This document shows, piece after piece, positions 1 to 49,223 of a stretch of 64,000 nucleotides of DNA. The notes under the pieces are model-generated. The model was not told the origin of the DNA and did no database searches. It worked only from the letters and a program-made list of their open reading frames with translations. Position numbers and translations under genes: made by a program. Every line of letters begins with the position of its first letter. Positions within the stretch are counted from its first letter, which is position 1. This DNA comes from an uncultured bacterium (lineage in GTDB: Bacteria > Patescibacteriota > Minisyncoccia > Phycocordibacterales > UBA9973), in assembly GCA_937903035.1 (NCBI GenBank), contig CALCZP010000004.1, positions 12,570 to 76,569 on the forward strand, in the 5' to 3' direction.

Positions 1-221
1 TTCTCTTTAATAAGAGTAAGTAGTTGGCTTTCACTCATGTCATTTACCAAAGCGACACCTTCAGAAAGAGCACTGTCCATTTTCTTAAGAAATTCTTTAT
101 CATCTTTTCGCCAACGATAAACACTATTACGAGATAGTCCTGTTTTCTCACATGCAACTTGAACTATTGGCACCTTCCGAAGTTCATCAAGGAACTGATC
201 TTGAAATTTATTCTTTTTCAT
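1..221 (-). CDS. Partial HTH protein resembling a phage terminase small subunit. The N-terminus is in the window and the C-terminus runs off the left edge.
   Basis: ATG at 219-221 (minus) gives MKKNKFQDQFLDELRKVPIVQVACEKTGLSRNSVYRWRKDDKEFLKKMDSAL..., an HTH pattern ('ACEKxGISRxTxYRWRK') typical of TerS-like proteins. It overlaps the stop of the upstream methylase by 14 nt. Confidence 0.4.
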   Translation of the reverse strand, partial: MKKNKFQDQFLDELRKVPIVQVACEKTGLSRNSVYRWRKDDKEFLKKMDSALSEGVALVNDMSESQLLTLIKE

Positions 222-1485
222 AGAAGTTCTTGATTACCTGTGCTTTGCGACCAGTTAATTTTTCGTATCTGCGAATTGCCAAATCGCAGAACACAGGTTC
301 TATCTCTAGGGAATAGACCTTTCGCCCAAGTTGTTCTGCACAGATCATGGTGCTTGCGGATCCAGAGAAGGCGTCAAAAATAATGTCTCCTGGTTTGGTG
401 CAACGCATAATAAACTTATGGTGGAGTTCAGGATTTTTACTTGTTGCATGCTCCATTTGATTTGCAGGAAGTCGTTTTGTCGCCCAGATATTTGAGATAT
501 CTTCTAGAAGCTGATTGCCAGTTCCGTAGTCTTTGTTTTGTACTTCGTTGAGATTTTTTACGAGATCAGAAATATATGGAGACCCTTTTGTGCCATACAC
601 GCAATACTCGAGGCACTTATTGAACGCCACGGTAGGTGTCGGCGATGAATTGTTTTTGATCCAGACATTGAGCCGTCTATTCTTAACTTCATGCTCCATA
701 TAGAGTGTTTGAAATACCCACACCCACGCTTCATCGCACCAGAAAGCGACGTGTACGTCCTTAGTAGATACAGCTAGTGAAGACTTAAGAACTTTGCGAA
801 TAAATTCTTTGTATTCTTCAGGTGATTGGTTGTCGTCAAATGTGCCACCATAGTTGGATTTATTGCCAACCCCTTTGTCATATGAAAGTCCGATATTAAA
901 GGGTGGGTCATTATATATAGCGGTAGCTTTATCATCGCCAAATAGTTTTTTAACGGCATTTATATCGGTTGAACTAGCACATAATAATTTGTGACCACCC
1001 ATGACAATCAGATCACCAGGTTTTGTTTGTGGTGTTTTGATTTTCTTTAATTCTTTCTCAACATCGAATTTATCGTCTTTAGTATCTTTTTCTTCGTCCC
1101 AAAACTTAACCAATTCTTTTTCGTTGAATCCAGCGAACTGTAAAAGCTCTAGATCAAATGACTTGAGCTTTTCAAAATCCCATTCGCCGTCGTTAATATT
1201 GCTTTCGATCGCAATCTTGCGACGTTCTTCGTCAGTCAATTTACGATCAGGAATCAACACATTTACTTGCTTAATACCGAGCTGTATCAAAGCAGTTTTT
1301 CTTTGATTACCTGAAATAATCGTATTGTCTGTATCAATAACGATTACACTATGAAAACCACTTTGAATGATCTTCTCTTTTAATTTTTCCATAGCGACCC
1401 GTGAGATTTTTCTTGGATTTTCTTTCCAAGGGAGCAGGTCTGTGACATCTCGAACTCCTGTTGTCCATGAAGGTTTTTTATTCAT
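208..1485 (-). CDS. ParB-like nuclease domain fused to a beta-class amino-DNA methyltransferase (N6-A/N4-C type)
   Basis: The N-terminal region is ParB/Srx-like. Motif IV 'YNDPPFNIG' precedes motif I 'FDAFSGSAST', which is the beta-class order. ParB-MTase fusions are typical of phage and mobile DNA. Confidence 0.8.
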   Translation of the reverse strand: MNKKPSWTTGVRDVTDLLPWKENPRKISRVAMEKLKEKIIQSGFHSVIVIDTDNTIISGNQRKTALIQLGIKQVNVLIPDRKLTDEERRKIAIESNINDGEWDFEKLKSFDLELLQFAGFNEKELVKFWDEEKDTKDDKFDVEKELKKIKTPQTKPGDLIVMGGHKLLCASSTDINAVKKLFGDDKATAIYNDPPFNIGLSYDKGVGNKSNYGGTFDDNQSPEEYKEFIRKVLKSSLAVSTKDVHVAFWCDEAWVWVFQTLYMEHEVKNRRLNVWIKNNSSPTPTVAFNKCLEYCVYGTKGSPYISDLVKNLNEVQNKDYGTGNQLLEDISNIWATKRLPANQMEHATSKNPELHHKFIMRCTKPGDIIFDAFSGSASTMICAEQLGRKVYSLEIEPVFCDLAIRRYEKLTGRKAQVIKNFYEKE

Positions 1486-1659
1486 AGAGTTTTTATTTAA
1501 TTACTTATAAATTTGTAGATGACTAATCTACTAACTCCATGAAATCAAAAAGGTACATAGTCATGTAATCACCACAAAATTGAGTAGTATAAAGAAAAAA
1601 CGCCTATTTAAAGGCGATTTTTCAAAGTTATCCACTCAACTTGGTGTCAACTTAGGAAT

Positions 1660-2292
1660 TTATTCTTTTTCTATGTGGATTTTTGGATTGATACGATACC
1701 CAGATCCTTTCTTTCCTTGAATGAGTTTCGTCTTCTTAGGAAGTCTTAGAGTGTTTATTGCGTAATCATTAAAAGTCTGAACCATTTTTGCTACCGCTTG
1801 TGATGAGGGGCAAGAGAGTATTCTTTGTAAGTCTTTTGTTTGTATATATGCATCTCGGTCAAGTAATGTTTCAAGTAATTTCTTTCTTTTTCCATTTTCA
1901 GTAAGGTCATATGAAAATAGTTTGCCGCCTAAATGTCTATCGAGCGATCCGTTATCTCTGTCGTAGATAATCACGTTACTATCTTGGCTTGAAGATAGAA
2001 GTCGCTTGTGATTTTTATTCAACTCCTGAAGTTCTTCTAAGATGTCATATTCAACAGGGCGACGATATACTATGGCTGGATATTCTACTGGCTCAAAAAG
2101 TTTTGCTTGTTCGCGAACGCGATTCATTTGTTCAATAATTGGTTGTGCAACTTTTTTGATATTTTCAATCATTTCAGCATGTCTTTTACCAATCTCTTGA
2201 AATTGAGAAATCTGCCCCTCACTTAAAGTAGGGGGATGTATTTTTGCCACCAGTTCACCAACAGTCATTGGTTTTTTCTGCTCGTCTGCCAT
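1660..2292 (-). CDS. Hypothetical regulator with a C-terminal OmpR-like winged helix, divergent from the LexA-like gene
   Basis: 210-aa ORF. The C-terminus '...KLIQGKKGSGYRINPKI' resembles a wHTH recognition wing. A hairpin terminator lies downstream. Confidence 0.4.
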   Translation of the reverse strand: MADEQKKPMTVGELVAKIHPPTLSEGQISQFQEIGKRHAEMIENIKKVAQPIIEQMNRVREQAKLFEPVEYPAIVYRRPVEYDILEELQELNKNHKRLLSSSQDSNVIIYDRDNGSLDRHLGGKLFSYDLTENGKRKKLLETLLDRDAYIQTKDLQRILSCPSSQAVAKMVQTFNDYAINTLRLPKKTKLIQGKKGSGYRINPKIHIEKE

Positions 2293-2350
2293 GTAGTTAT
2301 GATAGCAAATACTTGCTTTTTTGTATAGAGTAATTTATACTATTTATACC

Positions 2351-2968
2351 ATGACAAATAACCTAAGTGATAAAGATAAAAAAGCGTTTGCCCTTATCCG
2401 TAACAAGATTGTTCATTATGGCAAAAGTCCTACACTTAGTGAGATTAACGAGGTTACAGGTGGAGCTTCTCCACGATCTGCAAGCCTAGTAATTAATCGA
2501 CTAATCGATGCAGGACTTATAAAGAAAATCGGGCGACAACTTATCCTTACTGGATCACAGACAACAGCTTCAATAAGCACAGTTGATGTTCCGTTGGTTG
2601 GTGCTGTGACTTGTGGTGCTCCTGTTCTTGCCGAAGAAAATATTCAAGCACTAATTCCTGTCTCAACAGGTTTAGCAAAGAAAGGATCGAAATATTTTCT
2701 TTTGCGTGCTATGGGTGACTCGATGAATCTTGCGGGTATTAATAGTGGAGATCTGCTTTTGATTCGACAGCAAGATACAGCAGAAGATAATGAAAAAGTT
2801 GTTGCTCTTATAAATGACGAAGCAACCGTCAAAGTGTTCAAGAAAGCGAATGGTGCCGTTGTACTTCAACCGAAATCAACAAACAAAAACCACAAGCCGA
2901 TTATATTAACAGATAACTGCATCATACAAGGAGTAGTCGTTGCTGTACTTCCTGGTGATCTATATTAA
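2351..2968 (+). CDS. lexA: LexA-type repressor / S24 family autopeptidase (LexA or phage CI-like)
   Basis: The N-terminal domain resembles the LexA DNA-binding domain ('KKAFALIRNKIVHYGKSPTLSEINEVTGGASPRSASLVINRLIDAGLI'). A 'VGAVTCGAP' Ala-Gly cleavage region, the catalytic Ser in 'GDSM' and a Lys in 'KVFKK' are present. The start was moved to the ATG at 2351. Confidence 0.75.
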   Translation: MTNNLSDKDKKAFALIRNKIVHYGKSPTLSEINEVTGGASPRSASLVINRLIDAGLIKKIGRQLILTGSQTTASISTVDVPLVGAVTCGAPVLAEENIQALIPVSTGLAKKGSKYFLLRAMGDSMNLAGINSGDLLLIRQQDTAEDNEKVVALINDEATVKVFKKANGAVVLQPKSTNKNHKPIILTDNCIIQGVVVAVLPGDLY

Positions 2969-2972
2969 AAAT

Positions 2973-3200
2973 ATGGCAAAAAATATTCACACTGTTTACA
3001 ACTCAGAGCGTGGGATGTGGGAAAATAAAAAAGAAGGCTCTTCTTCTCCTGTTTCTTCGCACCACACAAAAGAAAATGCTCTTGATAGAGCAGAAAATAT
3101 TGCTGAAAAAGCAAAGGTCGAACATTTTATTCATGGTAAAGACGGAAAAATCCAGGAGCGTAACAGCTATGGAAACGATCCTTTCCCACCACGGGGTTAA
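2973..3200 (+). CDS. DUF2188 family small protein
   Basis: '...HGKDGKIQERNSYGNDPFPPRG' is the signature C-terminus of DUF2188/YjzC-like proteins. It starts 5 nt after the lexA-like stop and ends 6 nt before the next gene. Confidence 0.6.
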   Translation: MAKNIHTVYNSERGMWENKKEGSSSPVSSHHTKENALDRAENIAEKAKVEHFIHGKDGKIQERNSYGNDPFPPRG

Positions 3201-3206
3201 AACACT

Positions 3207-4130
3207 ATGGCTATTCCGCTTTCTCAACTGACAACATGGTCAAATCAGGGTGCTACTGTTTCAGCAAAAACAACACACGAATCTATTCGGACGGCACTAA
3301 CACACGATCAATCTCCACTTAAAGATCGTATCAGTAACGGCTCGGTAAAAATCTATCTCCAAGGATCGTATAAAAATGATACAAACATTCGAGCAGATAG
3401 CGATGTGGATGTAGTTGTCGAACTAACAACCACATTTGGTCATAATGCACACGAACTTCCTTATGATCAGAAAAATGCTCATGATCAGGCATACAGTAGT
3501 GCTGTTTATGATTGGCAAGATTTACGCAGAGATGTTATCTCTGCTCTGACTAAATATTACGGACTACTATCTGTTGATACAAGTGGTAATAAGTCAATTA
3601 AACTCAAACCTTCTTCAGGAAGGCTAAAGGCTGATATTGTTCCTGTTATAAATTATCGAAAATATGATTATTTTTATGGTACCACTAGCCATAATGCAGA
3701 AGAGGGTGTGAAGTTTTATCATCGCACAACAAATCGCGGAATTATAAATTATCCAGAGCACCACTATCAAAATGGAGTTAATAAAAATTCAGATACTCGT
3801 ACAGGTGGGCGTTTTAAACCAACAGTACGAATTTTCAAGAATATGAGAAACCATCTTGTTGATACAGGTAAACTTGCCGACGGTGTAGCACCATCATATT
3901 TCTTGCAGTCATTAGTTTATAATGTCCCTGATGAGCACTTCAATGGTGATAATTCCACAACCGTGCACGCCGTATTAAAACATCTCTGGTCTGCATTACC
4001 TTTGGGACAATGTGTGTGTCAAAACCATTTTCATGAATTATTTGGTGAAAGCGAGGAGCAATGGAATCAAGATGATGCGGTAAAAACTATTAGTGCTTTT
4101 GTAGAGCTTTGGGATAACTGGAATCAATAA
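3207..4130 (+). CDS. cGAS/DncV-like nucleotidyltransferase (CD-NTase / SMODS domain)
   Basis: 'IYLQGSYKNDTNIRADSDVDVVVEL' matches the [hQT]GS...DxD pol-beta NTase motif. The third acidic residue is in 'KADIVPV', and a helical C-terminal region follows ('PSYFLQSLVYNVP'). Confidence 0.7.
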   Translation: MAIPLSQLTTWSNQGATVSAKTTHESIRTALTHDQSPLKDRISNGSVKIYLQGSYKNDTNIRADSDVDVVVELTTTFGHNAHELPYDQKNAHDQAYSSAVYDWQDLRRDVISALTKYYGLLSVDTSGNKSIKLKPSSGRLKADIVPVINYRKYDYFYGTTSHNAEEGVKFYHRTTNRGIINYPEHHYQNGVNKNSDTRTGGRFKPTVRIFKNMRNHLVDTGKLADGVAPSYFLQSLVYNVPDEHFNGDNSTTVHAVLKHLWSALPLGQCVCQNHFHELFGESEEQWNQDDAVKTISAFVELWDNWNQ

Positions 4131-4132
4131 TT

Positions 4133-4732
4133 ATGCAAAATATACACCCATATTCAATAAATTCTGAAGAACACAAGTATGTATCGCTCTACCTTGCGGT
4201 ATTATCCATATTACTTGCTTGGGGTTTATATCTTTTCTCAAAAAATGTCTTTGTGCTTCCGTGGTGGATTGAGGCTCCTTCGGTGATTGGTTTTTACGGA
4301 ATTTTACATAAGTGGTTCGAGACTAAGTTATGGAGAAATAATTTTATTCGTAAAATTACTAGTATAAAAACTCCTATCGTAGATGGAAATTGGTCTGGAA
4401 CCATAACATCTCATTCAAATCATGCTAACGGTCCAATACAGATTAAGAAATTTTGTATTAAACAAACGTGGACTCATCTACTTATTTATCTAGAAACAGA
4501 AACATCCGAATCTTTCAGTTTTGAGGCATCAATGAATGTTGATGAGTTTGGAACGGCTCGAATACATTATCAATACAGAAACAAACCAAAAGATAATGCT
4601 CCCGAAAGTATGCACATACATGAAGGATCAGCATCTGCAAAACTAGAAGATGAAGGAACGCTTCAAACAGAGTATTACTCAGGTAGAGATCGTAACAATA
4701 CAGGCTCTTTTGAAGTTAAAAAGTTACAATAG
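4133..4732 (+). CDS. Two-transmembrane effector (SLATT / Cap15-like) with a beta-rich C-terminal domain
   Basis: Two hydrophobic helices (LYLAVLSILLAWGLYLF and APSVIGFYGILHKWF) are followed by a ~130-aa soluble domain. The gene starts 2 nt after the CD-NTase stop, so it is in the same operon. Confidence 0.6.
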   Translation: MQNIHPYSINSEEHKYVSLYLAVLSILLAWGLYLFSKNVFVLPWWIEAPSVIGFYGILHKWFETKLWRNNFIRKITSIKTPIVDGNWSGTITSHSNHANGPIQIKKFCIKQTWTHLLIYLETETSESFSFEASMNVDEFGTARIHYQYRNKPKDNAPESMHIHEGSASAKLEDEGTLQTEYYSGRDRNNTGSFEVKKLQ

Positions 4733-4757
4733 ATTGTAACTTTTATAGTCAATCCTG

Positions 4758-4784
4758 TGTCACTTTTGTCACTTTTTATCACTC
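4758..4784 (+). repeat. Three closely spaced direct repeats, GTCACTTTT / GTCACTTTTT / ATCACTCG (candidate iterons or operator)
   Basis: Read directly from the sequence just downstream of the 2TM gene stop. They are followed by TATAAT-like 'gatataat' at about 4796-4803. Confidence 0.4.
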
Positions 4785-4875
4785 GACAAGGGTCGATCTG
4801 ATATAATTAGAAAAGCTAAAAAAGCTTTGTGGTGCAATGAATCCCAAGGTCGCACCACGACTAGGCTCACAAAGC

Positions 4876-4903
4876 AAAAAGCGCTTCGCAAGAGGCGCTT
4901 TTT
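4876..4903. terminator. Rho-independent terminator hairpin, bidirectional
   Basis: AAAAAGCGC-ttcgcaagag-GCGCTTTTT, with T/A runs on both sides. Confidence 0.6.
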
Positions 4904-5095
4904 GCTTTGTGATTTTTTCAGCATATATGTTGAAAAAAGAATCGAACCGGGAAAGGGTCGGGAAACGGGAGTTTCCCGTGGAGGAAGGCAGGCGAAGCCG
5001 TTGGAAAACCGTGGGTTTCCAAAGTGTGAGATAATGAAATGTCCCCGTAGGGTCACTATTTAGAGAGCCCTCGAGAAGCGTCATAATAAATTACT

Positions 5096-5785
5096 ATGAA
5101 AAGACAAAACAACATACAAGCACAAATTAAAAGAGCCTCAGAAATTTTACCGAAAATCGAACAAGAATATAATAACTCTCTACACAAAAAAGAAGTTAGT
5201 GACGATTTAAAATTGGATATTCAAACTTTTTTAGGACACTTAAGATCTGCCTTAGATTACTTATCAAAGGATATAATTGAAAAATATTGTCCTAATGTAG
5301 ATAAATCATATTTCCCAATTAGGCATGACAAAAATTCTTTTATGAAAATGATGTCCGAATCTTATCCGGAGCTTATTTCACATTCTCCTGCTCTATACTC
5401 ATATCTGGAATCAATACAGCCATATACTAATTCGGATAACTCATGGCTAGCTCATTTCAATAAACTTAATAATGAAAACAAACATAACGATTTAGTTGAA
5501 CAAATACGAACAGAAACCGAGAGGGTTAATGTGGAGATTAATGGGGGTGGTAGTGTAAATTGGGACCCTTCGGCAGTTAGATTTAGTGGACCAGGTGTTT
5601 ATATAGGAGGAGTTCCTGTGGATTTTAATACTCAAATACCAGTACAATCAAATACTCAAACTGTAACTATCCAAACATGGATTGATTTCAAATTTAGTGA
5701 TATTGAAACTTCTGCCCTTCACTTACTAAAAGAGTCACTAAGCAAAATAAAAGATATAAACACTGAGATTGTTAAATTTCTATAA
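5096..5785 (+). CDS. Hypothetical protein (229 aa), first gene of a low-GC cassette
   Basis: Long ORF in a very AT-rich segment. The N-terminal half looks helical and the C-terminal half is Gly/Val-rich. No motif was recognised. Confidence 0.5.
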   Translation: MKRQNNIQAQIKRASEILPKIEQEYNNSLHKKEVSDDLKLDIQTFLGHLRSALDYLSKDIIEKYCPNVDKSYFPIRHDKNSFMKMMSESYPELISHSPALYSYLESIQPYTNSDNSWLAHFNKLNNENKHNDLVEQIRTETERVNVEINGGGSVNWDPSAVRFSGPGVYIGGVPVDFNTQIPVQSNTQTVTIQTWIDFKFSDIETSALHLLKESLSKIKDINTEIVKFL

Positions 5786-5802
5786 TTATTGGAAATAATA
5801 TT

Positions 5803-6468
5803 ATGATTGGCGCAATATTAAAACTTTCATATAACCAAATTGGAGAAAATACTATTATTGGGGGTATATGTGGGACGTGTTTTGCTATTGATAGACATAG
5901 GTTACTAACAGCTGAACATATTATTTCTAAAAATAGTTTTACACCGGACAATGGCTTTGAGAAAGTGCGGTACTGGGCATTACTTGAGTCTGGTCAAAAT
6001 ATTGAGATATATAAAAATAACATAGAAAGTAAAAGAGAAAAAGATCTTAGTATTATAAAAACATCTAAATGGATAAATGGTAAAGTTCTAAAAGTAATAA
6101 ATTCTGAGACAAATATTAACTCAACATGTGGGAATTATGGATACACAGCAAGAACAATGCCTGACATAGATGGTGCTTGGAGTAAAAGAAAATTCAATAT
6201 TAAGTTCCATTCTTTACAAGAAAACAGAATTCATTCAAGCGGTTATGTTAAATCAATAAAAAATGCAGAAGTTAATACTAATGATTTAAATTTAAAATCA
6301 AGAATCCTAGAACTTAGTTATGGCGGTCGAGAAGGTATGTCGGGCGGCTGTTTACAAAATGAAAATAATGAAATAATTGGTTTGATGTCATTTGGGTTAC
6401 CTCCAGATCAAGCAGTAAAAAATATTCTATTCGCAGTTGATATAAGAGAAATTATAAATTATTTATAG
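5803..6468 (+). CDS. Trypsin-like (S1/chymotrypsin fold) serine protease with no signal peptide
   Basis: Catalytic triad context: His in 'LLTAEHII', Asp in 'DLSIIKT', Ser in 'GMSGGCL'. There is no N-terminal hydrophobic segment. Confidence 0.65.
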   Translation: MIGAILKLSYNQIGENTIIGGICGTCFAIDRHRLLTAEHIISKNSFTPDNGFEKVRYWALLESGQNIEIYKNNIESKREKDLSIIKTSKWINGKVLKVINSETNINSTCGNYGYTARTMPDIDGAWSKRKFNIKFHSLQENRIHSSGYVKSIKNAEVNTNDLNLKSRILELSYGGREGMSGGCLQNENNEIIGLMSFGLPPDQAVKNILFAVDIREIINYL

Positions 6469-6551
6469 CGCTCGAGAAGGGTCGAAGTGCAATACTAAAA
6501 AGCACCAGTAAACCTTACGGGGTAAAGTAACACTTGGTTCTATCTCGAGAA

Positions 6552-6601
6552 GGCTCACAAATACAAAACACCTCTTACGAGGTGTTTTGTATTTGTGAGC
6601 C
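6552..6601. terminator. Perfect inverted repeat of about 22 bp with a 5-nt loop, acting as a bidirectional terminator between convergent genes
   Basis: GGCTCACAAATACAAAACACCTC-ttacg-GAGGTGTTTTGTATTTGTGAGCC. A related hairpin with the same core, ACACCTCTT[AG]CGAGGTG, occurs at 17168-17214. Confidence 0.6.
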
Positions 6602-6632
6602 GGAGGGTAGTGTACAAAATAATTACTTAAGA

Positions 6633-7280
6633 TTAATTACTATATTTAATCTGCTGGTACTCTGCCATTAATGCATTATAAATATCTGTATATTTACTAT
6701 AAATATCATTTAATTCAGCATTTCGTTGTTCTATTGTTGAAATACCTGGAGCACTTTTCACAGCTGCCGAATCCTTTGCATATTTTGCATTAAGATTAGC
6801 AATCTGTAGATTTATAGCATCAAGCTTTTTTTGTTTATCAGCTATTTTTGCGTTTATAACATCTTGTTCTCTTTGTGCTTGTTTTTTTACAGTTTCTGCA
6901 TCCTTTAGCGCTTTTAATTCGATCAACCTATCTTCTTCTGTCTTAATCGAAGCAGCTCTCGCCAATTCATCTACTGTTTGTTTAACAACTAAGGCGTCGC
7001 TATCTTTTGCTTTAGATGTTACTTTTGTTTGTGCCTTAATAGCTGCTGAATTATCAACTTGAGAAGCAGTAAGAGATTCAGCGACCGGAGCAACTGAAGT
7101 ATTTTTAAGCGTTTTTTCAAGTTCATTAATTCTATTGTTTAACTCCTGTGTTTTAACATCTATTTTTGGAGTAAACGTCCAGTTATTGAACCATGTTTTT
7201 GGTTGCCACCAAGCAGCGTTTGTAACCGTAGGAAATGCTAAAAAAAATCCTAGAAATAATAGTGAAATTAATTTTTTCAT
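6633..7280 (-). CDS. Secreted Ala/Lys/Gln-rich coiled-coil protein
   Basis: Signal peptide MKKLISLLFLGFFLAFPTVTNA. The rest is a low-complexity, helix-forming sequence. Confidence 0.5.
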   Translation of the reverse strand: MKKLISLLFLGFFLAFPTVTNAAWWQPKTWFNNWTFTPKIDVKTQELNNRINELEKTLKNTSVAPVAESLTASQVDNSAAIKAQTKVTSKAKDSDALVVKQTVDELARAASIKTEEDRLIELKALKDAETVKKQAQREQDVINAKIADKQKKLDAINLQIANLNAKYAKDSAAVKSAPGISTIEQRNAELNDIYSKYTDIYNALMAEYQQIKYSN

Positions 7281-7430
7281 ACTTAAAAGTAATTATTAAA
7301 TGCCTAATCTCTTAATTATGCTACCAGATTGATTTTAGTCAATCATTTAAGTATTTAGATATAAGATTGTTTCAATTTGCTCCTAATTTGGTCGCAAAAA
7401 AAAGAAGCACCACTTAGTGCTTCTTTATGC

Positions 7431-8243
7431 TTAAGCCATAACACGTTTTTTGGAAGGATATAGACTTTTTGCTCTCTGTATATAGAGTTTTGTAACATCA
7501 ACATCCAGATGATCACCAGGTCTGCCTGATTTGGTCAACTGGCTTTGAGCATCAATACTCACCCCATATCGTTTTACAAGCTCAGCTACTCTCCACACCG
7601 TCTTGGGACCGAGAGCTCCGGCAACTGTAAACTGCAGTTCACTGGTAAGGTTACAAATACCATCAATATATCCCTCAACACCTGGAAGATCTATTGCGTA
7701 GCCTTCCCCGCCAGATGCGTCAATGAGTACATGAGAAATAATACCAACATAGTGCTTCACTTCATGAGCAATTTTTATCGGATCCTCATTGTGCATATAC
7801 ATTGCATCTCTTCCAATCTGAAGGATAAGATCAATGTCAGGACATTTTTTCTTGAATGCTTCAAGCTCAGCAGGATCTGGCCATATCATGTCGAGCTGTA
7901 AAGCTTTCATGTTGGGACCACAAAGATCTACTACTGATGAAAGCTCTGCACATAGATGAAATCCCCGATCTGCATCATAATTTGCATAATGCACAGAGTT
8001 TACTATGCGACAATCTCGAACACTGAAAATATCTTTCAATGTTGTAACTGATGGATAGACACTTGCATGCTTTGTTGGCTTATCATGAAGTATCTTGTGA
8101 CTGGTCATAGCGCCAACCATAAACTGAGGGGTACTTTCATCAAAACCAGGAAGCACTTTCCATACTTCCATAACCTGCTCACCTGACTGAAATCCACAAG
8201 CACCAATGTAGGTACCTAATTTTTTTGTTTGTTTTTGTTGCAT
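7431..8243 (-). CDS. TIM-barrel protein of the TrpF (phosphoribosylanthranilate isomerase)-like family
   Basis: The C-terminus 'GVSIDAQSQLTKSGRPGDHLDVDVTKLYIQ' resembles the PRAI 'GVDVSSGVE..pG.KD' motif. No other trp genes are nearby. Confidence 0.4.
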   Translation of the reverse strand: MQQKQTKKLGTYIGACGFQSGEQVMEVWKVLPGFDESTPQFMVGAMTSHKILHDKPTKHASVYPSVTTLKDIFSVRDCRIVNSVHYANYDADRGFHLCAELSSVVDLCGPNMKALQLDMIWPDPAELEAFKKKCPDIDLILQIGRDAMYMHNEDPIKIAHEVKHYVGIISHVLIDASGGEGYAIDLPGVEGYIDGICNLTSELQFTVAGALGPKTVWRVAELVKRYGVSIDAQSQLTKSGRPGDHLDVDVTKLYIQRAKSLYPSKKRVMA

Positions 8244-8366
8244 ATGATGTACTATTTTGTTTTTCTTTACAGTACTACAGAATTAACAAAAGTCAAATAA
8301 TCTACCGAGGTCAAAAAACCATTACGTAACAATATAAAAACCACCGAATATTCGGTGGTTTTATTT

Positions 8367-9383
8367 TTATAATGCTTTTTCGATTTCAATAAGCTTTTTA
8401 ACTCCATTGTAGAGCTGCTCATAAATCTCACGCTCAGTCACTCCTAAGCGACGTTTATTTGAGATATCATAGATACCATCTGATGATTCAGAATGTTCTC
8501 CATGTACACCACGGATTGATAATCCGAGTGTGCCACAAATTGCTTTGAAATTTTGACTGTTTGAAAACTTTGGAATCCTAATATGTACTGATGCACGCAT
8601 TGCAGTTCCAAGGTTTGTCGGACAAGTCGTGTGATACCCACGAAGATCATCAAATGCAAAGTTGATTTTCTCATTGATAAAATTCAATGCTGTTGCCAAT
8701 CGGGTAAACACTTCAGCGATGTCAGCTCCTGGCTGCATACTTATGATACGCATACTGTCTTCTTCTGAAACCCAGACAAGGAATTTCTTGTCGTCAGAAA
8801 AGAAAATTCCACGATTCTTTGGCCAATCACGATTTACACCGGCACTTTCCAAGAAACGGTCGCCTTGCTTGAACAAAAAATGATCCTCAACCATTTTGGC
8901 ACGAACTTCTTCGCTCATACCATCAAGTGGAAAATACTCACCCTTAAGTGTTCCTGGGAGTTGTTTCAATGCTTCAATAATTTCGGATTCCATAGCAGCA
9001 CGATCTTCTGCTGAGATAGCAGAAGGAAAAGCATACTTTGCAAAATTACGACCAACACGAATACGGGTTGATACAACATAATTACCTTCAGGGTCTAAGT
9101 TTTCAACAGGAAGACCGGTGAGTGAGAAATCACTCTTATGCCCGCTCATATCATAATTATGATACTCCTTGATAACAGGATCAAAAAGAGAGGCAAGTAT
9201 AGTATACGATTCAGGATCTCCTGCATATACACCAATACTGGAGTCCTGGTTATCAATACCAGACTGAATTGCCTTTTGAAGAGTCCAGCCATGTGGTGTA
9301 ACAGCAGTAGCTAGCTGTTCTTGTACTTGTTCAGTACAATGCTTTTTCATTAACATGTCAGGGTTTTGTGTGTTTTTTGTCAT
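8367..9383 (-). CDS. Arginine kinase-type phosphagen (ATP:guanido) kinase, full two-domain form
   Basis: Active-site 'CPTNLGTAMRASVH' and 'KKFLVWVSEEDSMRIISMQPGADIAEVF' are classic AK/CK motifs. An N-terminal guanidino-substrate domain is present ('SGIDNQDSSIGVYAGDPESYTILASLFDPVIKEYH'), so this is not a McsB-like protein. It has its own terminator. Confidence 0.8.
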   Translation of the reverse strand: MTKNTQNPDMLMKKHCTEQVQEQLATAVTPHGWTLQKAIQSGIDNQDSSIGVYAGDPESYTILASLFDPVIKEYHNYDMSGHKSDFSLTGLPVENLDPEGNYVVSTRIRVGRNFAKYAFPSAISAEDRAAMESEIIEALKQLPGTLKGEYFPLDGMSEEVRAKMVEDHFLFKQGDRFLESAGVNRDWPKNRGIFFSDDKKFLVWVSEEDSMRIISMQPGADIAEVFTRLATALNFINEKINFAFDDLRGYHTTCPTNLGTAMRASVHIRIPKFSNSQNFKAICGTLGLSIRGVHGEHSESSDGIYDISNKRRLGVTEREIYEQLYNGVKKLIEIEKAL

Positions 9384-9482
9384 AAAGAACGTATTTTAAT
9401 ATAAATTTTTATATAATACTAACTTATAAAGTTTTTTTGTCAATTACACCATAAATCCCCGTCTTGTGAACGGGGATTTTTT

Positions 9483-9803
9483 CTACATCTTTTTTTTCTT
9501 TCTGAGATCAAAGTAGTTCGTGATTTTTATAAACTCAACTTCTGCTTCACATCCTAACTCTTCGAGTACCTCAATGACCTGATGAACGATGGCAAATTCA
9601 CTACTAAACATACGCAGGAATGGGCGATCTGTTTTTTCGGTATCAATTACTTTAGTCTTAATTTCAGAAAATGTTACGTTTTTGTAATCATCTTCTGAAA
9701 AAACTTTTTTTAAAGCATCGAGTAGATTATCACGAAGACTCATAAAGCCTGAATGAGAATAACCATGAAATTCAATTAAAGGAGCATAACTAGAGTGTTG
9801 CAT
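9483..9803 (-). CDS. Hypothetical protein
   Basis: 106-aa ORF with a downstream hairpin terminator (AAATCCCCG...CGGGGATTT). Confidence 0.4.
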   Translation of the reverse strand: MQHSSYAPLIEFHGYSHSGFMSLRDNLLDALKKVFSEDDYKNVTFSEIKTKVIDTEKTDRPFLRMFSSEFAIVHQVIEVLEELGCEAEVEFIKITNYFDLRKKKKM

Positions 9804-49002: not shown

Positions 49003-49152
49003 AATGATGAGATATCGTAAATACAAAAGACACCTAAAATTAGATGTCTTTTGTTCTGGTTACCGCACTCAGCGGGTATGCAATTTCAGTATAGTATATC
49101 GAGCTAGCTCGAGAAGCGTTATTTCAACGCGTCTCGTGCTAGCTGTCAATTG

Positions 49153-49223
49153 CTGGGGAACTAGGACTCGAACCTAGATAAACGGAACCAAAATCCGTTG
49201 TCCTACCATTAGACGATTCCCCA
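49153..49223 (-). tRNA. tRNA-Gln (anticodon UUG), without an encoded CCA
   Basis: Hand-folded: acceptor TGGGGAA/TTCCCCA, a three-bp D-stem (GTC/GAC), anticodon stem ACGGA/TCCGT with loop TT-TTG-GT, T-arm CTAGG-TTCGAGT-CCTAG and discriminator G. The architecture resembles E. coli tRNA-Gln. Confidence 0.8.

Follow-up and report, generated by a model that had tools for sequence, protein, structure and literature searches.

Results

Two plus-strand genes from the list of open reading frames lie side by side in the window (the whole 64-kb stretch of DNA that was analysed, which comes from a Paceibacterota, or CPR, genome). Gene A (5096-5785) encodes a protein of 229 aa and gene B (5803-6468) one of 221 aa, and they are separated by 17 nt. 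Both are real genes of conserved families, and an earlier note on this DNA was right in describing a two-gene unit in which a 229-aa protein is followed, after a 17-nt gap, by a protease. The GC anomaly claimed for this cassette was upheld. With a GC content of 30.6%, it is the minimum over all 1,373-nt segments of the 64 kb, which average 43.0% (sd 4.3%). The contrast with its immediate neighbors is modest (34.7% for the Cap15 gene and 32.6% for a gene encoding 215 aa), and positions 1-7,300 are low in GC throughout as opposed to the 45-50% of the housekeeping genes. Scans for terminators and for repeats and hairpins found no terminator between A and B. A promoter-like site is located at 5757-5786, just 5′ of B, and separate transcription of this gene is therefore possible.

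The cassette is bounded on both sides by copies of a repeated motif, as had been proposed. The sequence CTCGAGAAG is found exactly at 5070, 6471 and 6544, and a longer copy with one mismatch starts at 4782. There are five exact copies in the 64-kb window while 0.4 are expected, and none of 100 shuffles reached five. Copy 1 (CTCGACAAGGGTCGA, 4782-4796, plus strand), which is kept in the comparative loci L138-140 and L163, lies within the right-end module of the adjacent CBASS element. It opens the upstream copy of a composite, about 130 nt long, that joins the motif to a AGGCTCACAAA-hairpin and is duplicated at 4782-4912 and 6471-6601. Copy 2 (CTCGAGAAGCGTCAT, 5070-5084, plus strand), 12 nt before gene A, is part of a 31-nt direct repeat with 6467-6497. 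Copies 3 (6471) and 4 (6544) close an imperfect 79-nt hairpin (6471-6549, plus strand), which belongs to the downstream copy of this composite. Next to it, a perfect 23-bp palindromic hairpin (6552-6601) is located between the convergent genes B (plus strand) and 6633-7280 (minus strand), and on either strand the fold z-scores of this region lie between -9 and -10. The island ends on the right at this hairpin, which is probably a bidirectional terminator, a prediction that agrees with the earlier one for the 3′ end of the cassette. Its T-run sits within the stem, and for this reason it was missed by a simple scan for terminators.

On the other side, an intrinsic terminator (4864-4918, plus strand) composed of a 20-21-bp hairpin (GGCTCACAAAG..., stem-loop 4867-4912) and a T-run divides the CBASS/right-end module from the A-B cassette; the region 4797-4925 folds with a z-score of -8.9. 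The non-coding leader that follows (4913-5056, plus strand) is 99.97% identical to the sibling contig L137, which departs from the window after 5056. L137 has another cassette, and the shared leader is part of the flank rather than of A-B. The structured DNA that had been described upstream of the cassette was not found, as 4913-5095 folds no better than shuffled sequences (z = -0.69) and the strong structure is the terminator of the preceding module (4867-4912). An Rfam scan of 4600-6800, at gathering thresholds and also at E ≤ 10, produced chance-level matches only. A riboswitch, retron or ToxI-like RNA as a part of the cassette was dropped from consideration because no Rfam family matched, the fold was not significant, and the leader is common to a sibling with a different cassette. 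Integron attC sites and type III toxin-antitoxin (TA) loci were also considered for the repeat-plus-hairpin layout, and neither an integron integrase nor tandem RNA repeats were seen. Among all the other loci fetched, the repeat motif was absent outside the lineage; its 16 exact matches in IMG/VR are, by a rough estimate, no more than chance would give for a 15-mer.

The neighboring CBASS operon (3207-4732, plus strand), which is outside the cassette, is of type I and consists of a CD-NTase (3207-4130) and a Cap15 effector (4133-4732), with PADLOC matches to Cyclase PDLC00788 (3e-106) and Cap15_CD_rec (2e-27). An integrative element of about 8-9 kb with a serine recombinase has this operon at its right end, and A-B is located just beyond the edge of this element. 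The same element is present in six or more other host contexts, all of them without A-B, and in these relatives it shares 88-93% nucleotide identity with that of the window. The match ends at window position 4790 in L130, L141, L165 and L168 and around 4871 in L138 and L163, and A-B is missing from each. In L137, which also lacks A-B, the match runs to 5056 at 99.97% identity and the slot is occupied by a reverse transcriptase (PADLOC RT_UG17, 3.5e-17). Comparison of these sequences suggests that the slot to the right of the CBASS element is swappable, holding A-B in one genome and a UG17-type defence reverse transcriptase in its sibling. Because the relatives of the element do not have the pair and the slot of the sibling contains a different cassette, A-B appears to have been acquired horizontally, as anticipated in the earlier note. 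The absence of the pair from closely related genomes also shows that A and B are not conserved housekeeping neighbors. The proposed defence island is supported by the neighboring operon, a true type I CBASS made up of CD-NTase and Cap15, and by the UG17-type reverse transcriptase as the alternative cassette. A viral origin of the cassette was rejected; 2.9 million viral contigs contained one distant match each for A and B.

Protein B is, with confidence, an S1/HtrA-fold (PA-clan) serine protease with the double beta-barrel chymotrypsin fold and an intact catalytic triad (H39/D81/S180). A single S1 domain fills its 221 amino acids, with no PDZ, sensor or oligomerisation domain. The nearest fold is that of the periplasmic HtrA/Deg proteases, and the relatives of solved structure identified by sequence were generic S1 proteases only. 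No signal peptide or hydrophobic leader was detected, and B begins directly at a conserved structural beta-strand, like most of its homologues. The N-terminal KLSYN strand of B is invariant. These features sustain the earlier description of a cytoplasmic trypsin-like protease. A cryptic signal peptide, which would have spoken against it, is not present in B, but a few homologues (P0131, P0132, P0136, P0137 and P0149) have N-terminal extensions resembling signal or lipoprotein peptides. In PADLOC, the best matches of B were to RT-Protease_XI (1.4e-11 and 6.4e-11), LmuA (1.1e-9) and HamA1 (2.8e-5). All of these matches align with the protease part of models of fusion proteins; they are domain-level matches, and PADLOC-DB v2.0.0 has no full-length, system-specific model for B. 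B is thus a compact S1 protease from the clade whose members serve as fused protease domains in variants of retron-XI, Lamassu (LmuA) and Hachiman (HamA), in line with the suggested kinship to effector modules of phage defence. Homologues of B are found within restriction-modification (RM) operons in the arrangements HsdS-Abi_2-HsdR-B and MTase-B-PRiA4-RhuM-REase, and elsewhere their 5′ neighbors include TIR, AAA_21 ATPase, GmrSD and HsdR.

When clustered at 50% identity, the family of protein A comprises about 1,730 clusters. Its members, almost always 220-250 amino acids long, occur in CPR, Bacteroidota, Acidobacteriota, Planctomycetota and one archaeal MAG. The family has no entry in Pfam, NCBIfam or PADLOC. 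The search of PADLOC-DB v2.0.0 with A gave only a noise match (0.015) and no full-length, system-specific model; a profile search of the PDB gave one insignificant tail-fibre match and no relative of solved structure. A matches phrog_13652 (5.7e-8). The predicted structure is that of a cytoplasmic protein with a HEPN-like helical bundle and an inserted beta domain (approximately residues 136-200) that falls between the helices of the bundle. Every 10-residue block of the model has a mean pLDDT of at least 84, indicating that there are no disordered "gating" loops. The modeled resemblance to HEPN is at the fold level only, as no HEPN profile in Pfam, NCBIfam or PADLOC matched A (Pfam was searched to E = 10 and with 40 members). 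In a 40-sequence alignment, the Rx4-6H motif is absent and only a variable K/R123-x6-H130 is found, while R50 in LRSxLDY and H130 in NNENKH are invariant. The invariant residues also include S51, D54, Y55, Y72-F73-P74, N126, K129, Q136, W195, D197 and F198. No transmembrane segment and no Abi or PADLOC match was detected. Of the HEPN, Abi or sensor fold envisaged earlier for the 229-aa protein, a HEPN-like bundle is suggested by the model, but an Abi match and the Rx4-6H motif did not appear, and an RNase activity of A is purely conjectural. Homologues of A are located inside type I RM loci (L040, L042 and L066) and beside a NotI-type RM system, they occur solo on plasmids, and one lies alone and oppositely oriented in Bacillus phage PK1. 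Fusions joining A to a protease or effector were sought and rejected, since the longest members (P0226, P0233, P0254 and P0308) bear unrelated extensions. In their genomic surroundings, which are RM operons and the vicinity of recombinases and, for A, also a temperate phage and plasmids, the A and B families behave as defence-island passengers.

A trypsin-like gene lies directly downstream (+1) of A in 3 of the 74 A-family loci and is lacking in the other 71. Trypsin is the most frequent Pfam domain among the 74 +1 neighbors, and by a rough estimate about 0.15 such neighbors would be expected by chance. In addition to the window, the order A then B on one strand is found in the Bacteroidota loci L001 and L011, and in L062 a divergent A (34% identity) precedes a different S1 protease. 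The arrangement is found in three independent lineages, with gaps of 17, 8-73 and 11 nt. The closest relatives of A (L006 and L007, 59-61% identity) do not have B, and A is present at none of about 50 B-family loci (45 metagenomic loci plus L175 and L179). The possibility that other upstream partners of B are remote homologues of A was discarded, as in hhalign comparisons the A profile matched three of them with less than 1% probability each. In BLAST clusters of the neighbors, neither A nor B had a recurrent partner family. The tightly coupled two-component system that had been postulated is not well supported because the families are mostly apart and each is found alone inside RM operons. 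The partnership would rather be facultative, and each protein may work alone or with other partners elsewhere.

Discussion

We propose, with a probability of roughly 0.45, that A-B is acquired AT-rich cargo in a variable slot, that its function is most likely anti-phage or abortive-infection defence, and that the two genes possibly cooperate. A new anti-phage module is plausible. The genes would be co-transcribed, given the 17-nt gap, the lack of a terminator between them and the presence of one terminator on each side. They would then cooperate in the manner of other pairs of an effector and a trypsin-like protease: upon an infection cue, B would cleave A or be recruited by it. This could set free a toxic activity of A or, alternatively, lead to Lit-like proteolysis of essential host or phage proteins, and the infected cell would be arrested. 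Points against this proposal are the rarity of the pairing, the lack of gating loops and Rx4-6H in A, the lack of a sensor or oligomerisation domain in B, the promoter-like site before B, and the absence of both families as such from PADLOC.

The closest precedent is found in Hachiman and AVAST, where an upstream pro-nuclease is activated by a downstream trypsin-like protease that is insufficient by itself (Tuck et al., Science 2025; PMC12799240). The same pair is found in Lamassu and DRT loci, and its recruitment by Hachiman (HamMAB), AVAST type 1, Lamassu and DRT was described (PMC12799240). Like these pairs, A-B encodes an effector-type protein in a gene of its own, directly upstream of the gene for a trypsin-like protease; the protease is homologous to the domains fused to HamA, LmuA and RT (PADLOC), and the module is mobile and set repeatedly beside unrelated defence systems. 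However, the upstream protein of the known pairs is an MBL-fold nuclease with disordered gating insertions, while A is a HEPN-like bundle with a beta insertion whose lowest 10-residue block has a pLDDT of 84. Their protease is fused to HamA, LmuA, Avs1 or RT, whereas B is free-standing. A sensor component is not evident in A-B, and the effector and protease of the known pairs are co-inherited, unlike the facultative A and B (3/74 and 0/~50). By the fold of the effector, the fusion of the protease and co-inheritance, A-B does not qualify as a member of the pro-nuclease/trypsin-like protease family. We regard as rather unlikely the more specific proposal of a minimal immune system of two genes and no sensor, with a non-MBL, HEPN-like effector under the proteolytic control of a free-standing, HtrA-like S1 protease.

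The slot itself resembles the P2/P4-type cargo slots of prophage and satellite defence hotspots (PMC9122126) in that close strains have alternative defence cassettes (A-B or the UG17 reverse transcriptase) at a fixed place on the edge of an element. It differs from them in its CPR host, in the element, which carries CBASS and a serine recombinase and spans about 8-9 kb, and in the CTCGAGAAGGGTCGA/hairpin repeat on either side of the cassettes.

A possible but less probable reading is that A and B are independent single-gene passengers stacked in one slot with no functional interaction, A being a solo HEPN-like Abi protein and B a Lit-like solo protease. ApeA and the AbiU2- and AbiV-type proteins are solo HEPN abortive-infection proteins encoded by prophages and defence islands. 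Another example is Tha of S. aureus phages (PMC11087260). Like them, A is a single small cytoplasmic protein whose gene is carried alone, as an accessory, by temperate phages, islands and RM operons, but it has the invariant motifs LRSxLDY and NNENKH instead of Rx4-6H, has no HEPN match in Pfam or PADLOC and contains a beta domain between its helices. Lit, from the E. coli e14 prophage, is the classic single-gene abortive-infection protease and cleaves EF-Tu. As a cytoplasmic protease from a mobile element, B could also act alone upon a phage-product trigger, which would account for the solo B genes in RM operons, although Lit is a zinc metalloprotease and B has the S1 serine-protease fold. 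Independence agrees with the overwhelming separation of the two families, each found alone within RM operons, with the solo A genes in phage and on plasmids, with upstream neighbors of B that are unrelated to A and to one another, and with the possible separate promoter before B. It does not easily explain the conserved order, strand and short gaps in three lineages, one of them with a different S1 subfamily, when chance would give about 0.15 A-protease neighbors in 74 loci (a rough estimate), nor the fact that no terminator parts A from B.

We consider it improbable that A-B is an addiction or TA-like stabilisation module, or other selfish cargo, which aids the persistence of the island and is not defensive. 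The cassette is mobile, AT-rich, sporadic in its distribution and located at the edge of an integrative element, and HEPN-like folds are common among toxins. Against this, neither protein is like a small DNA-binding antitoxin, no TA family in Pfam, NCBIfam or PADLOC matched, and each gene is usually without the other, which is unlike obligate TA pairs.

Proteases are known as CBASS accessories or effectors, and A-B is directly 3′ of CD-NTase-Cap15 on the same strand, so it could be an accessory such as a second effector or a cyclic-nucleotide-responsive regulator. This role is very improbable and largely refuted by the comparative loci (L130, L138, L141, L163, L165 and L168): A-B is missing from at least six other contexts that contain the same element (51 near-identical CD-NTases). 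Moreover, the two are set about 360 nt apart with a strong terminator (4867-4912) in between, Pfam summaries of the other A or B loci include no CD-NTase neighbor, and neither protein has a known nucleotide-sensor domain. That the cassette is an ordinary one, with a secreted or housekeeping protease and an unrelated conserved protein, is hardly credible despite the signal- or lipoprotein-like N-termini of several B homologues and the closeness of the fold to periplasmic HtrA/Deg, because B itself has no hydrophobic leader and starts at a structural beta-strand, the pair is missing from closely related genomes, and the contexts of both families are RM and defence loci.

If A and B are independent passengers, they would be two candidate single-gene defence families, with nothing conceptually new. 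If A is controlled by the protease, the principle of a pro-effector plus a trypsin-like protease would gain a new effector class, and the A family of about 1,700 clusters, together with the solo B proteases in RM operons, would be unrecognised anti-phage genes. Validation of A-B as defence cargo would give a function and a name to a large, phylum-spanning family that currently has no database annotation, and would indicate that the defence-associated trypsin-like protease also works free-standing and with interchangeable partners. The flanking repeats could hint at a mechanism of cassette exchange. The phage biology of CPR/Patescibacteria is poorly known, and the slot, if validated, would be one of the few concrete defence-cassette hotspots in these host-dependent bacteria.

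Results

The cassette consists of two open reading frames on the + strand, A (5096-5785), encoding a 229-aa protein, and B (5803-6468), encoding a 221-aa serine protease of the S1/HtrA fold. The gap between them is 17 nt, and the span, the 229-aa product and the spacing described in the earlier note were all borne out. The claimed AT-richness also held: the GC content of A-B is 30.6% over 1,373 nt, the minimum among all equal-sized windows in the 64 kb (mean 43.0%, sd 4.3%). The adjoining genes are AT-rich as well (Cap15, 34.7% GC; the downstream 215-aa gene, 32.6% GC), and the true contrast is that of the entire 1-7.3-kb island versus housekeeping genes of 45-50% GC (LysRS, DnaJ, DnaK). The 215-aa gene (6633-7280, - strand) is convergent with B and shares a bidirectional hairpin with it; its product matched no family and clearly carries an N-terminal signal peptide ahead of a body that is coiled-coil-like. 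The end of the low-GC island is marked by an adjoining ATP:guanido phosphotransferase gene (arginine-kinase/McsB-like; 8367-9383, - strand), which is followed by LysRS, DnaJ and DnaK, all of them ordinary host genes.

Positions 1-4790 make up the right-hand portion of a ~8-9-kb integrative element that extends to the left of the window (L133, the locus of this genome reaching beyond the window start, 1-9584). The gene order of the element is large serine recombinase, terminase-like/DEAD protein, 135-aa protein, ParB-N4/N6 methyltransferase, 210-aa protein, S24 repressor, DUF2188 or 303-aa protein, CD-NTase and Cap15. The neighbouring operon had been called CBASS-like, and its profile matches make CBASS a solid assignment (PADLOC cyclase, 3e-106; Pfam Cap15_CD_rec, 2e-27). 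In this genome and in L163, a diversity-generating retroelement (DGR; RVT_1 reverse transcriptase plus the accessory protein bAvd) is found where other relatives have the serine recombinase; here it adjoins the CBASS element at L133 137-1537, which puts it about 3.3-4.7 kb ahead of the first window position. At ≥90% identity the CD-NTase counts 51 members, which, where sources name them, are from Paceibacterota or Nomurabacteria. Copies with 88-93% nucleotide identity occur in no fewer than six further host contexts in Paceibacterota (L130, L138, L141, L163, L165 and L168), each with different right-hand host genes, and the homology of these copies to the window stops at 4790 or ~4871. The element resembles a satellite or prophage that serves to carry CBASS in CPR bacteria.

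None of these six relatives carries A-B. Furthermore, the sibling contig L137, which stems from the same study, agrees with window positions 1473-5056 at 99.97% identity and diverges thereafter. Beyond 5056, in the equivalent slot (L137 3585-4672), it contains a CTCGAGAAGGGTCGA motif, ~330 nt of non-coding DNA and a reverse transcriptase gene, whose best match is PADLOC RT_UG17 (3.5e-17) and which also matches Pfam RVT_1. Near-identical backgrounds thus carry alternative cassettes at one position, one of them a recognised defence reverse transcriptase class. This finding provides direct evidence for the acquisition of A-B as cargo of a defence hotspot, in agreement with the horizontal acquisition proposed before, and it rules out that A and B are conserved housekeeping neighbours. 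The ~330-nt stretch preceding the reverse transcriptase is a candidate DRT ncRNA.

Repeats were found at the cassette edges, as had been claimed. Exact copies of CTCGAGAAG are located at 5070, 6471 and 6544, and a one-mismatch copy of the longer motif CTCGAGAAGGGTCGA at 4782; exact 9-mer copies in the window number 5 against 0.4 expected, and at least 5 were obtained in 0 of 100 shuffles. A composite module of ~130 nt (motif, ~65 nt, then a hairpin based on AGGCTCACAAA) flanks the cassette on both sides (4782-4912 and 6471-6601), with AGGCTCACAAA, the base of the neighbouring hairpins, itself recurring at 4863 and 6551. The claim that structured DNA bounds the cassette was correct downstream of B, where an imperfect 79-nt hairpin closed by two motif copies and a perfect 23-bp hairpin between the convergent genes (6552-6601) have fold z-scores of ~-9 to -10 on either strand. 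It failed for the leader (4913-5095), whose folding was not significant (z = -0.69) and which matched no Rfam family; the strong structure upstream of A-B is an intrinsic terminator (4867-4912). The motif and hairpin arrangement suggests that cassettes may be exchanged by a site-specific or repeat-mediated route.

Motifs of the CTCGAGAAGGGTCGA type bracket A-B (4782, 5070, 6471 and 6544), and another lies at the alternative-cassette junction (L137 3608). A further CTCGAGAAGCGT copy is found inside an intergenic hairpin (49100-49145) directly downstream of a tRNA (49153-49223, - strand); it could be a related terminator, an att-like element or a coincidence. The right end of the element includes a possible small RNA gene (4797-4925, fold z = -8.9) that has a perfect extended -10 at 4799-4807 (TGATATAAT), hairpins in its interior and an intrinsic terminator made up of 4867-4912 and a T-run. 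Conservation of its internal hairpin in L138 is not obvious.

In an alignment of 29 homologues of B, no variation is seen at H39 or S180 (GMSGG), and position D81 is either Asp or Glu, in accordance with the triad proposed earlier. The N-terminus is a conserved beta-strand, modelled with confidence (MxxAILKLSYN; K7 and S9 do not vary). Since the protein starts at this strand, B has no signal peptide, as the earlier note stated, and no extra domain. Five homologues forming a subclade (P0131, P0132, P0136, P0137 and P0149; alignment A3) have N-terminal extensions similar to Sec signal peptides or lipoprotein peptides, and therefore a subset of the family may, judging from these sequences, be exported rather than cytoplasmic. 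The PADLOC check suggested for the pair gave hits for B solely to the protease parts of fusions that belong to known defence systems, namely retron type XI RT-protease (1.4e-11), LmuA of the protease type (1.1e-9) and HamA1 (2.8e-5).

Protein A was indeed unrecognised. It had no match in Pfam, NCBIfam or PADLOC, its sole match being phrog_13652, of unknown function (5.7e-8), and 40 members of its family showed no recurring Pfam family even at E ≤ 10. Yet it belongs to a large family with good conservation, which has 258 90%-clusters in an indexed search and 1,730 50%-clusters at E ≤ 1e-3 in an exhaustive profile search; among the latter, nearly all lengths are 220-250 aa and informative fusions are absent. 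Its hosts include CPR phyla, Bacteroidota, Planctomycetota, Acidobacteriota, Proteobacteria, Chloroflexota and one archaeal MAG. The AF2 model (pLDDT 93) has long helices at 4-31, 36-64, 113-129 and 207-226, and a beta domain (~136-200) inserted ahead of the final helix. Residues conserved without exception are R50, S51, D54 and Y55 (LRSxLDY), then YFP, and N126, K129 and H130 (NNENKH). Because these do not form the HEPN motif Rx4-6H, the HEPN-like fold suggested by the model is a lead, short of a classification.

The neighbourhoods of A are heterogeneous across 79 genome loci. Nevertheless, a trypsin domain is encoded by 3 of the 74 downstream neighbours scanned (L001, L011 and L062), making it the commonest single +1 domain, and order, strand and short gaps are alike in all A-then-trypsin cases. 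The proteases of L001 and L011, both from Bacteroidota, are 95% identical to each other, and that of L001 is 36% identical to B; in L062 a 34%-identical A precedes a different S1 protease (20% identical to B, hhalign E 2.4e-6). As chance would, by a rough estimate, give ~0.15 such genes in 74 loci, the association looks real.

From the side of B, an A relative was present in 0 of 45 metagenomic loci with B-family genes. A co-directional ORF lies ≤100 nt upstream of B in 15 of 37 usable loci, and these partners vary, among them HsdR, N6/N4 methyltransferase, a TIR protein (8-nt gap), AAA_21/AAA_15 ATPase, GmrSD, weak Abi_alpha-like and AbiU2-like proteins, membrane proteins and a transposase. 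Two closer homologues belong to RM operons with 4-11-nt gaps, ordered HsdS-Abi_2-HsdR-B (L175 1184-5687) and MTase-B-PRiA4_ORF3-RhuM-ResIII/REase (L179 3122-9779); no catalogue appears to list solo S1 proteases as passengers of RM operons. A itself is found inside three type I RM loci (L040, L042 and L066), beside a NotI-type RM, on Bacillus plasmids and, alone and in opposite orientation near a recombinase, in Bacillus phage PK1. In these scattered contexts both behave like defence-island passenger genes that can be separated. The partnership is recurrent but facultative, and the earlier interpretation is supported in part: as acquired defence-island cargo, but not as an obligate two-component system.

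Discussion

Our main reading, to which we give a probability of roughly 45%, is that A-B forms a mobile defence cassette transcribed as one unit, whose S1 protease would act together with the HEPN-like protein, the latter as effector or partner, so that infected cells are arrested. The main rival, that A and B are two independent passenger genes, agrees with their separate contexts and is opposed by the A-trypsin pairs; we regard it as rather unlikely.

Useful comparisons are HEPN Abi proteins that occur singly in prophages, for example Tha, the Lit protease, and P2/P4-type prophage defence hotspots. Tuck et al. (Science 2025, PMC12799240) studied variants of Hachiman, AVAST, Lamassu and DRT, all with an MBL-fold pro-nuclease that a separate gene upstream encodes; in that study the protease by itself was insufficient without sensor-driven oligomerisation. 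The PADLOC matches of B are to those protease domains and the gene order is identical to A-B; however, A is not an MBL nuclease and lacks disordered gating loops, B is free-standing, and A and B are not co-inherited. A-B may therefore work like the pro-nuclease/protease pairs, yet it is not a member of their family.

These findings are of value on three counts: the A family is large, unannotated and consistently placed in defence-type contexts; the defence-associated trypsin-like protease is present here as a stand-alone gene; and a cassette hotspot is documented for a CPR bacterium.
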